NCBI GenBank assembly: GCA_943372155.1
Contig: CALRXP010000003.1
Location: forward strand, 1-32,232
From: Candidatus Endomicrobiellum trichonymphae
GTDB lineage: Bacteria > Elusimicrobiota > Elusimicrobia > UBA1565 > UBA9628
Length of the DNA: 32,232 nucleotides
Direction of reading: 5' to 3'
Numbering within the stretch: the first letter of the stretch is position 1; every line of letters starts with the position of its first letter. A model generated the notes under the pieces. It was not told the origin of the DNA, searched no databases, and saw only the letters and a program-made list of their open reading frames with translations. Shown in pieces: positions 23,081 to 32,232 of the stretch. Position numbers and translations under genes: made by a program.

Positions 23081-23548
23081 TTATTTGCCGGACGCGAGCT
23101 TCTCGAGCCACTCGGGTGCGGCACCGCAGGTCCCGCCCTTCTGCGCGAGGATCGCGGCCAAGGTCACGCCGTCGAAATAGCCGTTGACCAGCTCGCCGAG
23201 CTTCGTCCACACCGGCGAGATGGCGCAATGCCCCTGATGCCGGCAGTCCTTCGTGCCCGAGGTAAAGCGTTCGCACGTCTCCTCGAAGACCGCGCCGTCC
23301 ACGGCGCGCACGACTTGCGCCAAGGTGATTTCCTTCGGCTCGCGCGACAGCGAGTAGCCGCCCGCGCTGCCGCGATGGCTCGTCACGAGGCCGGCGCGGC
23401 GCAGCTTGACCAGGATCTGGCTCACGTAGTCGCCGGGCACGTTCTCGGTCTCGGCCAGGCGCTCCGCCGGCAGCGGCGCCTTGCCGTGTTCGGCGGCCAA
23501 GGTCACCATCAGGCGCGTCGCGTACTCGATCGAGCTCGTGATTCTCAT
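23081..23548 (-). CDS. Rrf2 family transcriptional regulator (IscR-like, three Cys)
   Basis: 155 aa. Winged HTH YVSQIL.KLRRAGLV.S.RG..GGY and C-x9-C-x5-C. Confidence 0.92.
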   Translation of the reverse strand: MRITSSIEYATRLMVTLAAEHGKAPLPAERLAETENVPGDYVSQILVKLRRAGLVTSHRGSAGGYSLSREPKEITLAQVVRAVDGAVFEETCERFTSGTKDCRHQGHCAISPVWTKLGELVNGYFDGVTLAAILAQKGGTCGAAPEWLEKLASGK

Positions 23549-24337: not shown

Positions 24338-25587
24338 TACCGCACCCCCGCCTTGGGTTTGACCTTGAAGAATTCGAGCGTGCGCTTGAGCGCGCGCCCG
24401 AAGGCTTCCACGTCCGACTCGTCGTTGTAGAGATAAAAGCTGGCCCGGGCCGTACCGCCGCACTGGAGAAGGTGCATCAGCGGCTGGCAGCAATGGTGGC
24501 CGACGCGCACCGCGACGCCCTCGAGGTCGAACGCCGTGCCCACGTCGTGCGGGTGCAGACCGGGAACGTTAAAGGAGACCACGCCGGAGCGCTTGGCCGG
24601 ATCCGTCGGCCCGAGGACCGTCATGCCCTCGGCCTCGAGGATCGCGCGCGTCTTATCGGCAAGCGCGTTCTCGTGCTTCGCGATATTGTCCAGACCGACG
24701 GCCGACAGATAGTCGAGCGCGGGCCCGAAGGCCACCTGGTCGGCGAAGTTGGGCGTGCCGGCCTCGAACTTGTACGGGAGCTCGTTCCACGTGGACTTCT
24801 CGAGGGTGACGCGTGAGATCATGTCGCCGCCGCCGAGGAAGGGGTCCATGGCCTCGAGAAGCTCCTCACGGCCCCACAAAACGCCGATGCCCGTAGGCCC
24901 GAGCATCTTGTGCGCGGAGAAAGAGACGAAATCGGCGCCCCAAGTCTTGAGATCCATGGGCTTGTGCGGCGCCCACTGACAGGCGTCCACGGACACGACG
25001 GCGCCGGCCGCTTTGCCCATTTTGATGAGCTCGAGCACGGGGTTAACGGTCCCGATCGCGTTAGACAGCGCGGTGAAGGTGAACAGCTTCGGGCCCTTGG
25101 CCAGAAGCTCCTTGGCCTTCTCCATGTTCAACGTGCCGTCGAGGTTGACGGGCACGAACTCGAGCTTGATCCCGCGCTCGGCGGCGAGCAACTGCCACGG
25201 CACGATGTTCGAGTGGTGCTCCATCTCGGTCGAGAGGACGATGTCCCCCGCCTTCAGGAACTTGCGCGCCCAGGCGTGGGCGATGAGGTTGAGCGACTCG
25301 GTGGCGTTGCGCGTGAAGATCAAGGTCTGGGGCTTCGGCGCGCCGACGAAGGCGGCGAGCTTCGTGCGCGTGAGCTCGGCCATGTTCGTGGACTCTTCGG
25401 AGAGCGTGTGCACGCCGCGATGGACGTTGGCGTTATGTTTCTCGTAAAAGTCGACCAACGACTGGATCACGACCCGCGGCTTCTGCGTGGTCGCCGCGTT
25501 GTCGAGGTACGCCAGCGGCTTGCCGCGCACCAGGCGCTTTAAGATCGGAAAATCGGCGCGGTATTTTGCGGCGTCGAAGCGGCTCAT
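24337..25587 (-). CDS. sufS: Cysteine desulfurase, group II
   Basis: 416 aa: YLDNAATTQKP, NVHRGVH, EHHSN.VPW, FSAHKM.GPTG, FEAGTP, RVGHHC. Confidence 0.96.
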   Translation of the reverse strand: MSRFDAAKYRADFPILKRLVRGKPLAYLDNAATTQKPRVVIQSLVDFYEKHNANVHRGVHTLSEESTNMAELTRTKLAAFVGAPKPQTLIFTRNATESLNLIAHAWARKFLKAGDIVLSTEMEHHSNIVPWQLLAAERGIKLEFVPVNLDGTLNMEKAKELLAKGPKLFTFTALSNAIGTVNPVLELIKMGKAAGAVVSVDACQWAPHKPMDLKTWGADFVSFSAHKMLGPTGIGVLWGREELLEAMDPFLGGGDMISRVTLEKSTWNELPYKFEAGTPNFADQVAFGPALDYLSAVGLDNIAKHENALADKTRAILEAEGMTVLGPTDPAKRSGVVSFNVPGLHPHDVGTAFDLEGVAVRVGHHCCQPLMHLLQCGGTARASFYLYNDESDVEAFGRALKRTLEFFKVKPKAGVR

Positions 25588-26767
25588 GATTTGGCCTCCA
25601 CGGCCTCGGGCGTGCGCCCGTGCAGCGCGTCGGCCAGCGCCGACTTGAGCGGCTCGAGACCGACACGGTCGATCATCTCGGAGCCGAAGGCGTACACGAG
25701 CAGGCGCCGCGCGGCGTCGGCGCCGATGCCGCGGGAGCGCAGGTAGAACAGCGCTTCCTGGGACATCTGCCCGACCGCGCCGCCGTGCTTGCAGGACACG
25801 TCGTCGGCGAAAATCTTGAATTCCGGATTGGTGTTGACCCGGGCGTCCTCGGACAACAGCAAGTTCTTGTTGTAAACCTGCGCGTCGGTCTTCTGCGCGC
25901 CGGGCTTCACGTGGATCAGACCGTCGAAGACGTAGCGTGACTTGTCGTCGAGAACGGCCTTATAGAGCTCGCGCGTGATGCCGCCGACGGCCGCGTGCTC
26001 GACGACCGTGTGATGGTCGGCGAACTCCGAGCCCGCGAGCAGCGCGAGGCCGTTGAAATGCGCCTCCGCCCCCTCGCCCGCCATACGCGCGCGGACGTCC
26101 TCGCGCGCGAAATAACCCGACAAATTGAAGACGTGCGACTCGTAGCGCGCGCGGGAGCCGATTTCGGCTTCGAGCGCGACGGTGAGGCGGCCCTGGGCGC
26201 CCTGGCGGACGACGCGGTAATGCTTGAGCGCGGCGCCCTCCGCGAGGACGACCTGCGCGCGGACGTTGGACCAGAACGGGGCGTCGCCGAAAGCGGCGTA
26301 CTCCTCGACGATCTCGGCGGAGGCGCCGGGCTCGAGAACGATCAGCACGCGGGCGTGGGCGGCTTCGGCGCGATTGGCCGAGGACTCGGCCAGGTGGATG
26401 AGATGGATAGGCTGATCGACGCGCACGTGGCGGCCGACGCGAACCACGATGCCGTCCTTGGCCTGGGCCGCCGCGAGCGCGGCCAGAGGGAGGTCGGCGG
26501 GGAGGGCCGCGGCGAGCAGGGCCTTCAGATCGCCCGCGCCCGACAAGCTCTCGACGCTCACGCCGTTGGGCAGCTTAAGCAAAGCGTGCTTGGACTCCCA
26601 GCGGCCGTTGACGAGCGCGGCGCGATGGAATCCGACGGGGCAGAGGACGCGTCCGCCGAGCGGCGGCTGAGACGCGGGCATGCCGGCGGGCTCGAAGCGA
26701 GGGCCCGTCAGAGCTTCACCGGGGGTGAAGCGCCAGCCTTCCTTCTGGGCGGCGAGGGCTTCTTTGA

Positions 26768-26771
<4 letters not shown>
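25584..26771 (-). CDS. sufD: Fe-S cluster assembly protein SufD
   Basis: 395 aa: FDGLI.V..GAQKTDA...[28 protein letters not shown]. Confidence 0.95.
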
Positions 26772-27520
<749 letters not shown>

Positions 27521-27521
27521 A

Positions 27522-28961
<1,440 letters not shown>

Positions 28962-28967
28962 AGGGAC

Positions 28968-28996
28968 AGTATATCATTCCTGACTAATTTAGTCAA
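28968..28996 (-). promoter_or_regulatory. sigma70 promoter of the suf operon
   Basis: The minus strand reads TTGACT-17 nt-TATACT with a TG extension, 6 nt before the sufB ATG. Confidence 0.8.
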
Positions 28997-29002
28997 GAAT
29001 GA
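28974..29002. promoter_or_regulatory. Rrf2/IscR type-1-like operator palindrome
   Basis: TCATTCCTGACTAA-T-TTAGTCAAGAATGA has 14-bp arms with one mismatch. Core 28976-29000 fits the IscR type-1 consensus ATASYYGACTRwwwYAGTCRRSTAT at 23 of 25 positions and covers the suf -35. Confidence 0.85.
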
Positions 29003-29040
29003 CCTAGACGGGCCGCGCGAGACCTGTTATATACCAACGA

Positions 29041-29898
29041 ATGCCCACCGTTCCCTGCCCCGGCTGCCAAAAGGACCTCACCCTCGATCAGGAGGTCTGC
29101 CAGCACTGCCGACGCCCCCGGGATGAATTCGAGATCGAGGAAGGCCGCGAGCGCGTGCGCCAGGCGGCGCTGCGCCGTCAGGAACGCCCCCGCCGTATGC
29201 TTCGGGTCGCCGTGTTGATCCTCACGCTCGGCGGCGCCGCCTTCGCGGGCTGGACCCAGCGGGCGCAATTGGTGTCGCGCGTCCAAAAGGCGAAAATGGA
29301 TTTCGCCGCGGAGGTCGAACGGACCCGTAATTTGAACGGCCGCGATCCCGGCGCGGTCGTCGGCCCGGCCGAGGGGCTCGCCTCCTCGAAACCCGCGGTC
29401 ACGGCGTCATCGGCCGTCGCCCTGGGGACCGCCCCCGCGTCCGCCGCCGCGACGACGCCGGCTCCTCCCGCGCCCGTGCCCGACGTCGTCGCCGCGACGC
29501 CCCCCTCTCCGCCATCGAGCACGAGCGAACGGCGCCTGTACGGGATCGTCTATGATCTCGTCACCAAGAAGCCGATCAAATCCGCCGTGGTCCATTTCGA
29601 GAACAACTCGGGGATGCATTGGCAAACGACGACCGACGCGCTGGGGCAGTACCAGCTCGACATCTACCGGCACTTCTCTCCCTCCGTGCTCACGACGCGC
29701 GTGAGCGCGCCCGGGTACCGCAACGGCCACATCGAGGACCAATTCACGGGGTTCTATGAACAGTCCGAAAAAACCCGCCTGCGCCTAGCGGCGGAAATCA
29801 CCGACGACGAGCTGGAACCGGTGCCGTTTGATTTCGTCGAGTCAGCGGACGTATTGGAACGCAATCTCGTGCTGGTTCCGGAGAAGAAGCGCAAGTAA
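29041..29898 (+). CDS. Zinc-ribbon / TM / Pro-rich / carboxypeptidase-regulatory-like domain protein, paralog 1
   Basis: 285 aa: CPGC-x10-CQHC, a basic stretch then TM, a Pro/Ala linker, and LYGIVYDLVTKKPI..A...TTDALGQY...APGYRNG. Confidence 0.8.
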   Translation: MPTVPCPGCQKDLTLDQEVCQHCRRPRDEFEIEEGRERVRQAALRRQERPRRMLRVAVLILTLGGAAFAGWTQRAQLVSRVQKAKMDFAAEVERTRNLNGRDPGAVVGPAEGLASSKPAVTASSAVALGTAPASAAATTPAPPAPVPDVVAATPPSPPSSTSERRLYGIVYDLVTKKPIKSAVVHFENNSGMHWQTTTDALGQYQLDIYRHFSPSVLTTRVSAPGYRNGHIEDQFTGFYEQSEKTRLRLAAEITDDELEPVPFDFVESADVLERNLVLVPEKKRK

Positions 29899-29901
29899 GC
29901 C

Positions 29902-30834
29902 ATGGAGACGCCTCCCTGTCGTTGGTGCGGCATGCGGTTCCCTCCCGAGGAGGCCGCGTGCCCTTATTGCCGGACTCCGAGACAGGATGCGGAGGCCGAG
30001 CCGCTGTCGCCGCTCGAGAGCCCGGTCGACGCGGCACCGATCATGCCGGCCCCGAGCCTGGGGCCTTATCTCATGAAGGCCGGGGCGGCCTTCATCGGCT
30101 TCCTCGCTTTGGCCTGGTGCCTCCACCGACTTTTCCCGGCCACGCTGGAGTCGAGCTGGACCGACTTTCAAAATGAGGTCGAGCGCACAAGAGACCCTCA
30201 CCCACGCGCCGCGACCGCGAGCACCGAGGTCACGACCTCCTCGTACGTGTACCTCTCAGGCTCTCCTCCGCCGACGGTGCTGTCGACGTCGTTCACGCCT
30301 CGAGCGGAGCCGCCCCCCGCCGCGCGCGCGCCCTTGGCCCCGCCTCTGCCTCCAGCAGACCGACCCGCTCCCGCGGGTTCGCCCGCGACCGACGCCGCTC
30401 CCATGACGGTCAAACCCATCGCCGAAGCGGCCCCCGCGCCGCCCCTTCCCGACCCTTCCTTCTTTCGCGTGTACGGCGTGGTTTACGACCTAGCGACCCT
30501 CCGGCCCATCGCCGGCGCGCATCTCGTGTTCAGGACCGAGCGTTTCACGGTCGCCGCCGGTGTGACGGACGAGGCGGGGCACTATCGGGTCGACCTCTCG
30601 AAAGGCAATAATAGCGGGGAAGTGACGGTTTCGATCCACGACGGGGTTCCGGGCTACCGAAACGGCCTGTTCGAGGACAAGGATCCGCCGCTGAGGGAGC
30701 GCCCGAAGGACGCGCGCCTCATGATCATGAGCGAGACGACCGACAGCGACCTCGAGCCGGTGCCCTTACGCTACAAGCAAAGCGACGAGGTCATCCCGCT
30801 CGACCTCGTCCTCATCCCCCTGGCGAAAAAATAG
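29902..30834 (+). CDS. Zinc-ribbon / TM / Pro-rich / carboxypeptidase-regulatory-like domain protein, paralog 2
   Basis: 310 aa: CRWC-x10-CPYC, TM, Pro-rich linker, and VYGVVYDLATLRPIAGA...VTDEAGHY...VPGYRNG. Confidence 0.8.
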   Translation: METPPCRWCGMRFPPEEAACPYCRTPRQDAEAEPLSPLESPVDAAPIMPAPSLGPYLMKAGAAFIGFLALAWCLHRLFPATLESSWTDFQNEVERTRDPHPRAATASTEVTTSSYVYLSGSPPPTVLSTSFTPRAEPPPAARAPLAPPLPPADRPAPAGSPATDAAPMTVKPIAEAAPAPPLPDPSFFRVYGVVYDLATLRPIAGAHLVFRTERFTVAAGVTDEAGHYRVDLSKGNNSGEVTVSIHDGVPGYRNGLFEDKDPPLRERPKDARLMIMSETTDSDLEPVPLRYKQSDEVIPLDLVLIPLAKK

Positions 30835-30835
30835 C

Positions 30836-31720
30836 ATGCCTGAATTCGACTCCCTGCCGTGCCCCGGCTGCCACACCCCGCTCCCCCCTGAAGCGACGGG
30901 CTGTCAGGTGTGCATGCGCGCGCGCACCAAGCAGGAGATCGTTCGCGGCTACGCCAAGCTCCGCGACGACAAAGCGCGGCGTCGAAGGCGGCCGTTCCAG
31001 ATTCTGGCGGTCCTCATCGCCCTCGGCGCGCTCGGCAAGATCTACCTGGTGTACGGGGATAAAATCCGCACGGTCACGGGCAAGGTCGCCCGTGCCGTCG
31101 GCCGCCGTATCGACGACATGCGTGACCCGAAGAATTATGCCGGTAAGCCCGAGGACGCGCCGCCGCCTAATTCCAATCCCGCGGATGCCAAGCCGGCGGC
31201 CGCTCCTGGCGCCCCGGTCCCGCCGGAGTCCGCCCTGCGAAACCAGCTTTTCCCTCCGGACTCCCCCGCCCCCTCGCCGCAACCCGCCGCGGTTCCAACG
31301 CCGCCGCCTGCGAGCGGCTCCGGCCCGCAGCCGCTCGACAAGAACGCCTGGCGAGTCTCCGGAATCGTGTACGACCTCGCGACCCTCGATCCCATATCGG
31401 GGGCCGAAATCACTTTTCTTTACAAAGATCGCTCGCCTGTGACCGTCAAAACGGACGAGACCGGCGCTTATGAAGCGGATCTTCCAAAGGGCGAAGGCTG
31501 GAACGTGAACGTGAAGGCGCCGGGCCACCGACGCGGCGGCCTGCTCGATATCGACCCGCCCTACAACGTGCGCGACGCCGACGAGCGCCGGGCCACCCTC
31601 GAGCACATCACCGATGGAGACCTCGCGCCTTCCCAGGTCGGCTGGAAGACGTCGAAATCGAGAGTCAAGCTCGACCTGATCGCGGTCCCGCAACGCTGGA
31701 GCGACCCGCCTCAACGCTGA
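30836..31720 (+). CDS. Zinc-ribbon / TM / Pro-rich / carboxypeptidase-regulatory-like domain protein, paralog 3
   Basis: 294 aa: CPGC-x10-CQVC, RRRRR then TM, Pro-rich linker, and VSGIVYDLATLDPISGA...KTDETGAY...APGHRRG. Confidence 0.8.
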   Translation: MPEFDSLPCPGCHTPLPPEATGCQVCMRARTKQEIVRGYAKLRDDKARRRRRPFQILAVLIALGALGKIYLVYGDKIRTVTGKVARAVGRRIDDMRDPKNYAGKPEDAPPPNSNPADAKPAAAPGAPVPPESALRNQLFPPDSPAPSPQPAAVPTPPPASGSGPQPLDKNAWRVSGIVYDLATLDPISGAEITFLYKDRSPVTVKTDETGAYEADLPKGEGWNVNVKAPGHRRGGLLDIDPPYNVRDADERRATLEHITDGDLAPSQVGWKTSKSRVKLDLIAVPQRWSDPPQR

Positions 31721-31752
31721 CGCCCCCGCGCGGGATTTGGTAGTTTCTCCCG

Positions 31753-32232
31753 ATGTCCAAGCTCCTGTTGCTGGCGCTATTCGCCTGCGCCCCTCTCTCC
31801 GCGATCGCCCAGACGACGGTCGACGCCCCCGCGTCGACGGCTACGTTCCGCGGCGTCCACTTCACCGGCTGGGCCGCAGGCTCGACTAAATCGCGCCGGC
31901 GCTTCCTCGCCGATATGAAGGGCGCCGGCTTCAACGCCGTCGTCATCGCCTTGAAGGATTACGACGGACATGAATTCGTGCGCGACGTTCCCCTCGCGAT
32001 GAAGACGGGTGCGTTCACGAACGCGATCCCGGACCTGCCGCTGGCCGTCAAGGATTTCAAGGATGCCGGGATTTACACGGTCGCGCGCATCGCGATCTTT
32101 AAAGACGACCACCTGGCCCGAGCCCGCCCCGACCTCGCGGTGCATTTCCCCGACGGGCGCATCTGGACCAATGACAAAGGCACCGCCTGGACCGACCCTT
32201 ATCAGAAGGAGGTGTGGAACTACGTGATCGAC
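31753..32232 (+). CDS. Exported putative glycoside hydrolase (DUF4015-like), 3' end beyond the window
   Basis: Not in the ORF track; translated by hand: signal peptide MSKLLLLALFACAPLSAIA, then RGVHFTGWAAG...NAVVIALKDYDG...GIYTVARIAIFKD...WTDPYQKEVWNYVID. Confidence 0.85.
   Translation, partial: MSKLLLLALFACAPLSAIAQTTVDAPASTATFRGVHFTGWAAGSTKSRRRFLADMKGAGFNAVVIALKDYDGHEFVRDVPLAMKTGAFTNAIPDLPLAVKDFKDAGIYTVARIAIFKDDHLARARPDLAVHFPDGRIWTNDKGTAWTDPYQKEVWNYVID

Follow-up and report, generated by a model that had tools for sequence, protein, structure and literature searches.

ZitP of Caulobacter crescentus is, according to the available extracts of its description, a bitopic protein of 311 residues whose cytoplasmic CXXC-x19-CXXC zinc ribbon binds PopZ and whose periplasmic DUF3426 domain recruits CpaM, a periplasmic protein resembling carbohydrate enzymes, for pilus assembly (PMC5182063). 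GltJ (AgmX) of Myxococcus xanthus, as presented in the excerpted account, has an N-terminal ribbon that acts as a protein-interaction switch; after a single transmembrane (TM) helix come a flexible stretch in the periplasm and a TonB-C domain (PMC11135422). In Lactococcus lactis, part of the published description tells of two paralogous membrane proteins encoded in one operon, Llmg_0524 and Llmg_0526, which carry CX2CX10CX2C and bind zinc stably, and one of which affects cell-wall integrity (PMC4628341). We have analysed a stretch of 32,232 nucleotides (nt) from Candidatus Endomicrobiellum trichonymphae, a member of the Elusimicrobiota (contig CALRXP010000003.1 of assembly GCA_943372155.1; the whole stretch is referred to here as the window), and find at positions 29041-31720 three adjacent genes, P1, P2 and P3, whose products belong to one unnamed protein family with the same general layout. 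The original prediction for this DNA knew of no named system with such a layout; the three systems above, as far as the extracts describe them, do have it, and the genes do not represent a new kind of system, since the general layout is already known.

We favour, by a little more than an even chance, the reading that P1, P2 and P3 are tandem duplicates of one lineage-specific bitopic inner-membrane protein that acts as an envelope adaptor in the manner of ZitP and GltJ. In such a scheme the cytoplasmic ribbon would dock a cytoplasmic partner while the periplasmic domain would hold or position a component of the envelope. The candidate clients at this locus would be a co-directional periplasmic M16 peptidase and a hydrolase-like protein with a DUF4015 domain, and in another subgroup of the family the client might be a PilB-like pilus ATPase machine.

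Three tandem genes with one layout

The three genes are as follows; lengths are in amino acids (aa), and groups A and B are the two branches of the family tree described below.

29041-29898, plus strand: P1, 285 aa, an extra group-A copy, from the list of open reading frames (ORFs); residues 6-23 form the zinc ribbon, ~53-71 the TM helix, ~72-160 the linker and 161-285 the C-terminal domain, in which ~233-263 are the insertion with its invariant R246
29902-30834, plus strand: P2, 310 aa, placed in group A together with the relatives' upstream copy; residues 6-23 form the zinc ribbon, ~56-74 the TM helix, 185-310 the C-terminal domain and ~259-289 the insertion
30836-31720, plus strand: P3, 294 aa, the group-B copy, which corresponds to the relatives' downstream copy; residues 9-26 form the zinc ribbon, ~54-72 the TM helix, 169-294 the C-terminal domain and ~238-268 the insertion

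The junctions are very tight, with TAA-gcc-ATG between P1 and P2 (a gap of 3 nt) and TAG-c-ATG between P2 and P3 (a gap of 1 nt). Aligned end to end, the three proteins share 48 invariant columns, among them the four Cys, and their similarity in BLASTP (E=3e-28 for P1 and P2, E=5e-17 for P1 and P3) is far past chance. A 300-aa ORF on the antisense strand is probably a GC artefact; its GC content at third codon positions is 0.68, as against 0.79-0.83 for the frames of P1, P2 and P3. In each protein a C4 zinc ribbon is followed by a single TM helix, then by a Pro/Ala linker and last by a CarboxypepD_reg-like domain; the coordinates, junctions and alignment thus bear out the original description of three ORFs sharing one architecture. 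Every motif it quoted can be found in the sequences: the Cys pattern, the Arg-rich stretch, the TM helix, the motif after it, the Pro/Ala linker and those of the C-terminus.

The pattern C-x2-C-x10-C-x2-C is the firmest feature of the N-terminus, with C6, C9, C20 and C23 invariant in all 34 aligned family members, and by analogy with the Lactococcus proteins it would be expected to bind zinc. Pfam zinc-ribbon models (Zn_Ribbon_1, Zn_ribbon_3, DZR and UPF0547) give P1-P3 only 10-13 bits, below their cut-offs of 27-29, while two relatives with a double ribbon pass UPF0547 at 30.6 and 38.8 bits (cut-off 29). We note that two longer members, of 408 and 518 aa (L061:1412-2635 and L065:3720-5273), have two zinc ribbons (UPF0547 above its cut-off, plus DZR) and the same C-terminal domain. 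Directly after the ribbon P3 has a strongly conserved basic helix, and ribbon and helix together show a mean identity to P3 of 75% within group B, as against 31% for the linker. In P2 the basic helix of the orthologs is replaced: residues 28-55 (window 29902-30070) are acidic and Pro-rich, without Lys or Arg before the TM helix. This tail is not a sequencing error, because a similar variant occurs in the protein P0011.

In 30 of the 34 members the N-terminal side of the TM helix is richer in Lys and Arg than the other side (in 3 it is poorer), which suggests, as had been proposed, that the ribbon is cytoplasmic and the remainder of the protein periplasmic. A small-xxx-small motif is found in 29 of the 34 helices. 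Between the TM helix and the C-terminal domain lies a spacer that spans 52-127 residues across the family (median 95.5), with medians of 17% for Pro and 54% for Pro, Ala, Ser, Thr and Gly together.

Set beside ZitP as portrayed in the extracts, the family is alike in being bitopic and about 300 aa long, and in that a single TM helix separates a C4 ribbon at the cytoplasmic N-terminus from a domain at the periplasmic C-terminus, and there is a parallel in gene context in that a gene for a periplasmic DUF4015 protein follows the copies and one subgroup follows a gene for a PilB-like ATPase. It differs from ZitP in the spacing of the Cys pairs, which is x10 rather than the x19 of zinc_ribbon_5 (there is no match to PF13719), and in its periplasmic domain, which is CarboxypepD_reg-like rather than DUF3426. 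No DUF3426 (PF11906) was found in the family proteins or in the window's own genome, which is 82% complete; ZitP and the family come from different phyla and have no detectable sequence relationship. With GltJ, again going by extracts, the family shares the N-terminal ribbon, the single TM helix, the flexible periplasmic stretch and the folded C-terminal periplasmic domain, but GltJ has a cytosolic region of 377 residues with a GYF domain and a periplasmic TonB-C domain, and P1-P3 match neither GYF nor TonB_C; the NCBIfam model for GltJ (NF033761) yields 18.6 and 16.2 bits against an equivalog cut-off of 450, in a Pro-rich low-complexity stretch only. The Lactococcus proteins, compared here by their published description as far as it was available, have exactly the Cys spacing of the family and are likewise paralogs, encoded in one operon, but their host is Gram-positive. 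The family fails the defining features of these groups (ribbon subtype, DUF3426, GYF and TonB-C, equivalog score), and so by sequence it is not a member of the ZitP, GltJ or Lactococcus group; by analogy it may work as those proteins do.

The layout also bears on a TonB-like role, in which the proteins would transduce energy and the Pro-rich spacer would reach the outer membrane. The bitopic, N-in arrangement with a Pro-rich periplasmic spacer and the weak match to the Pro-rich part of GltJ would suit such a role, but that match, at 16-19 bits against 450, falls in low-complexity sequence, the family proteins contain no TonB_C domain and no ExbB/ExbD-like neighbours were found at the loci examined, so that we regard this idea as scarcely credible.

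The C-terminal domain and its insertion

The C-terminal domain had been assigned to CarboxypepD_reg, and this assignment stands in one respect and not in another. Against the Pfam profile PF13620 (length 82, gathering cut-off 32.3 bits), P1, P2 and P3 score 27.8, 20.0 and 28.4 bits, all under the cut-off, and their matches span only profile positions 2-51, 2-60 or 2-63; some relatives exceed the cut-off (36.1, 35.9, 38.7 and 38.8 bits), and 31 of 34 family members match at E<=0.01. In a comparison of profiles the similarity is strong. A global hhalign alignment of the family profile with a profile of 70 generic 85-aa CarboxypepD_reg repeats, cut from seven giant repeat proteins, has a probability of 97.8% and E=5.2e-12, with all 87 template columns aligned and a single gap of about 31 residues on the template side. 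The domain shows beta-type hydrophobic periodicity at five segments and is probably a transthyretin-like beta-sandwich. Searches of sequences in the PDB found just weak partial matches to Bap and transthyretin-like proteins, and neither P3 nor a homologue was found in the ESM Atlas.

The generic repeats match positions 1-72 and 104-121 of the family domain, and because their profile leaves about 31 family-specific residues unmatched, the insertion is real at the profile level, close to the length of about 35 residues first suggested. Relative to the PF13620 repeats of giant surface proteins, then, the family is alike in the first ~72 positions and the last strands, and differs by the insertion of ~31 residues and in that the domain occurs singly and ends a protein anchored in the membrane. 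The insertion lies between the PGY strand and the last strands and carries the motif (E/D)D-x-DPPYRER...R...DLEP-P, with an invariant Arg. It is the best-conserved periplasmic segment, with an identity of 0.58-0.62 to P2 or P3, as against 0.20-0.31 for the linker. Within it, positions 78-95 contain nearly no Pro or Gly, and by a crude indicator positions 89-94 have helix-like periodicity with beta-like segments on either side. We predict that the insertion is the likeliest binding surface of the protein. We also note that the giant proteins, P0004 among them, contain up to 44 matched CarboxypepD_reg-like stretches (6305 aa), and that in several proteins of ~1220-1560 aa 85-aa repeats succeed one another in strict register.

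Distribution and duplication history

A profile of the three C-terminal domains matched 1421 cluster representatives at E<=1e-3, 268 of them at E<=1e-10, and these fall into two classes: proteins of 200-330 aa with the whole domain at the C-terminus, which are the family, and giant repeat proteins matched only over the first 45-70 positions, which are generic CarboxypepD_reg. (A word-indexed search with P1 alone gave 3 matches.) Among the matches listed of <=520 aa, 36 of 93 have a complete ribbon in their first 80 residues, many others begin inside the ribbon, which suggests short gene calls, and a few have a membrane anchor only; at the loci examined, 33 of 38 family ORFs carry the ribbon, the other 5 being cut by contig ends or frame breaks. 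All 8 homologs with an organism name are proteins from metagenome-assembled genomes (MAGs) of Elusimicrobia/Elusimicrobiota, as are the two full-domain loci of named genomes (Elusimicrobia MAGs), and homologs are labelled 'hypothetical' or 'carboxypeptidase regulatory-like domain-containing'. In a genome survey with a broad profile of the C-terminal domain, a full-length match at E<=1e-8 was present in 51 of 61 sampled genomes of the window's order, with 1-5 per genome. A phylum-wide sample gave a match in 7 of 8 genomes of the order (the window's own genome, G000, included) and no full-length match in any of 143 sampled genomes of the phylum outside it, where one partial, generic match was seen. 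The family is thus genuine, unnamed and, as far as sampled, confined to one order of Elusimicrobiota.

Searches of Pfam, NCBIfam and PDB sequences found no characterised family that matches over the full length, in agreement with what had been predicted; the matches in NCBIfam were low-complexity only and far under cut-offs, PADLOC gave 0 families for P1-P3 at E<=0.01, and among open-access papers we found none on this architecture or family. The window's own genome holds five members: P1-P3, one after serA (contig C108), and one B-like member that is apparently split, its ribbon and TM helix at the end of contig C49, after an argC-D-F-B-E-H cluster, and its linker and C-terminal domain at the end of contig C127, before a gene for a PPC-domain protein. 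The two contig ends have no exact overlap; the pieces appear to form one B-like gene, with the Pro-rich linker probably the cause of the assembly break. A profile of the ribbon found only family members in this genome at E<=1e-10 (5 matches), the next match being at 1e-3.

In a maximum-likelihood tree, group A (support 97/92) comprises P1, P2 and the upstream copies of relatives, and group B (98/95) comprises P3, the downstream copies and the split copy just described, while the copies of single-copy genomes of the same genus are sister to A and B together. P2 joins the usual upstream copy at a weakly supported fork whose placement differs between two trees; P1 has diverged further and is a surplus copy within group A, with one protein of 91% identity elsewhere and no counterpart at those loci of relatives that we examined. 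The homologous locus holds different numbers of copies in different genomes. Three copies are present in G000; two in G003, G004, G010, G011, G014, G016, G019 and G024 (8 of 10 loci) and also in the named MAG L035; one copy, of group B only, in G020; and one pre-duplication copy in seven genomes of the same genus (G002, G007, G008, G012, G017, G022 and G023). In G184, from another genus of the same taxonomic family, three shorter copies (269, 220 and ~155 aa; L083:4917-6855) lie between sufB and an M16 gene, and the third is without the first strands of the C-terminal domain. This triple is an independent expansion, because its copies form their own clade (SH-aLRT 97). In G019, a single-contig genome (L025), sufD, both family copies and the DUF4015 gene are fragmented by frame shifts, which looks like assembly error of a long-read genome and not gene decay.

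Because copy number at the locus varies and the G184 triple arose independently, recurrent tandem duplication of one gene fits these data better than a fixed three-subunit machine. The original prediction had proposed such a machine, with the three paralogs as non-redundant subunits of an obligate hetero-oligomeric trans-envelope system, possibly including the DUF4015 protein. In its favour, the split between groups A and B is old and clear, the two lie side by side in 8 of 10 relatives' loci and in L035, and all copies are intact and keep the family invariants; the small-xxx-small motif in 29 of 34 TM helices points the same way, albeit weakly, the motif being common in Ala-rich helices. Yet G020 has B alone, seven genomes of the genus have a single pre-duplication copy at the same place, and a B-like copy stands alone after the arg operon in the window's own genome. 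P1 is an extra member of the same orthogroup as P2; the examined loci of relatives have no such copy, its one appearance elsewhere being the 91%-identical protein, and the G184 triple descends from one ancestor and has a truncated third copy. The case for a dedicated three-subunit machine is weak, and we think the proposal improbable.

The suggested dedicated link to DUF4015 fares no better: G022 and G017 have no DUF4015 gene at the locus, in G002 a gene on the opposite strand lies between it and the family copy, and in the other two families of the order DUF4015 occurs in the genome and never adjoins a family member. The gene is thus an optional part of the locus within the genus and, beyond the genus, never a direct neighbour of a member. 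A narrower rule, that the B copy and DUF4015 always occur together, was withdrawn, single-copy G008 having DUF4015 and G022 and G017 being without it. Among open-access papers we found DUF4015 in one, mentioned only in a legend.

Genomic neighbours and possible roles

The other features of the locus are:

24340-28961, minus strand: sufB-sufC-sufD-sufS operon, divergent from P1
28962-29040, no strand: intergenic region from sufB (minus strand) to P1, known from its sequence and an alignment of 13 intergenic regions
31753-32232, plus strand: first 160 aa of a putative glycosyl hydrolase-like protein with a DUF4015 domain (PF13200, E=5.6e-30)

The DUF4015 gene begins 32 nt after the stop of P3, and its product has a signal-peptide-like start and is cut by the contig end. 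In the window's taxonomic family the order of the locus is sufB, divergent from the copies, then DUF4015 where present, then M16, with sufS-D-C-B on the opposite strand; this order is seen in two genera, and the suf operon is the constant neighbour. The M16 peptidase at the locus has 970 aa and a signal peptide; in the window's own genome the array carries on in another contig (C2), where the remainder of the DUF4015 gene and the gene for a 970-aa M16 peptidase overlap by 4 nt. We infer that the copies, DUF4015 and M16 form one operon. A gene for an Rrf2-family regulator lies at 23084-23548, downstream of sufS, and scans for Rfam families and tandem repeats in 28800-32232 found nothing.

The region between sufB and P1 contains two separate elements, both conserved across the 13 aligned intergenic regions. 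Next to the sufB start, the strongly conserved suf-side element CAGTrTAyCATTCCTGACnnnTTTAGTCAAGAATG includes the palindrome TGACTAATTTAGTCA at 28981-28995 and is probably a sigma-70-like suf promoter with an operator. On the other side, TAGACG (29005-29010) and TATATA (29028-29033) form a promoter-like pair 17 nt apart ahead of the array, with TATATA ending 7 nt before the ATG of P1; across the alignment the conserved element is TGGACG-N17/18-TGTTATAA, just ahead of the start codon of the first copy. The two elements may be read as back-to-back promoters, the paralog array having a nearly leaderless start. This arrangement bears on the idea that the four Cys bind iron in a rubredoxin-like manner and that the proteins are a metal/redox module of Fe-S assembly acting with the divergent suf operon. 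The short conserved intergenic region shared with sufB, in the genus and in G184, would favour it; against it, the two promoter-like elements are separate and the palindrome is on the suf side, other subgroups of the family are without a suf neighbour, and CX2CX10CX2C binds zinc stably in the two L. lactis membrane proteins as far as the published extracts tell (PMC4628341). We consider a role in Fe-S assembly far-fetched.

The M16 gene raises a different question, namely whether the copies are substrates, the co-encoded periplasmic peptidase cutting the long disordered linker and thereby releasing the C-terminal domain. In favour of this, the M16 gene comes after the copies, and on their strand, in two genera, the 4-nt DUF4015/M16 overlap was noted above, and the linker is long, poorly conserved and rich in Pro and Ala; but members outside the window's taxonomic family have no M16 neighbour, and no conserved cleavage site is evident in the linker in family alignments. 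This is in our view very unlikely.

Beyond the window's taxonomic family each member stands singly, and the contexts vary. Subgroups of the family other than that of P1-P3 have other neighbours: a member follows serA in 3 genomes of the genus, another follows the arg operon in the window's own genome, and in 5 genomes of another family a member lies between lnt-prfB and a divergent gene near the L1-L11 genes. In L040, L044, L045, L050 and L065 the divergent neighbour encodes 158-282 aa, has no Pfam match and is close to the L1-L11 ribosomal genes. The most suggestive of the other contexts is a position directly downstream of a gene for a PilB-like T2SSE/MshEN ATPase, which is found in 4 genomes of 3 genera of another family (L039:5985-8524, with a 1-nt gene overlap; L042:3904-6366; L041:3822-6313; and L057); at two of the T2SSE-linked loci a gene for myo-inositol-1-phosphate synthase is next. 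Envelope-related neighbours recur (M16, M48, M50, amidase, DsbA-like, beta-lactamase-like and Lnt), though no one partner recurs.

One locus bears on trans-membrane signalling. In G024 (L067:1050-3526) genes for an extracytoplasmic function (ECF) sigma factor, a FecR-like protein and a family member lie consecutively on the same strand; no other sigma-linked member was seen. Were the periplasmic domain to sense an envelope cue, the ribbon could sequester or release a cytoplasmic regulator, as an anti-sigma factor does, or bind nucleic acid, which the basic CRRPR motif could conceivably contact, and ribbon and basic helix are indeed the most conserved part of group B (75% identity). Zinc-binding anti-sigma factors carry an H-x3-C-x2-C motif, and the family ribbon is not of that type; nor was a match to anti-sigma families found in Pfam or NCBIfam. 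Moreover, L067 is a single case among the loci examined, no sigma factor or regulator adjoins the copies at the window locus, and the ECF sigma gene of the window is 17 kb away. We therefore hold a signalling role, like the hetero-oligomer, to be improbable.

Returning to the adaptor reading, several points weigh against it. Neighbours differ between subgroups (suf/M16, serA, arg, prfB/L1, T2SSE and ECF sigma-FecR), and because of this gene context yields no single function. The suf/M16 linkage is confined to one family of close kin and could be inherited gene order without functional meaning. P1-P3 score below threshold for CarboxypepD_reg and for every zinc-ribbon family in Pfam, and the fold, the helix in the insertion and the exposure of the insertion are predictions from sequence. 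Finally, because P2 is without the basic cytoplasmic helix, the copies need not all have one cytoplasmic partner.

A bolder version of the adaptor reading can be put forward, and in its full form we consider it unlikely. The family would be the Elusimicrobiota counterpart of ZitP, its ribbons serving as landmarks that tie a cytoplasmic cue to the placing of periplasmic machines. A heteromer of A and B would position the co-transcribed DUF4015 and M16 proteins, the T2SSE-linked paralogs would do likewise for a type IV pilus-like machine, and the insertion would be a new binding module on a transthyretin-like fold.

Lastly, the analysis defines a coherent, unnamed protein family of an uncultured lineage, with clear boundaries, a diagnostic insertion and a duplication history. 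The analysis also links the family to a growing class of bacterial bitopic proteins, represented by ZitP and GltJ, that organise the periplasm by means of a tiny cytoplasmic zinc ribbon. If the analogy is true, the family would provide a handle on envelope organisation and pilus biology in the Elusimicrobiota, where no genetics exists.

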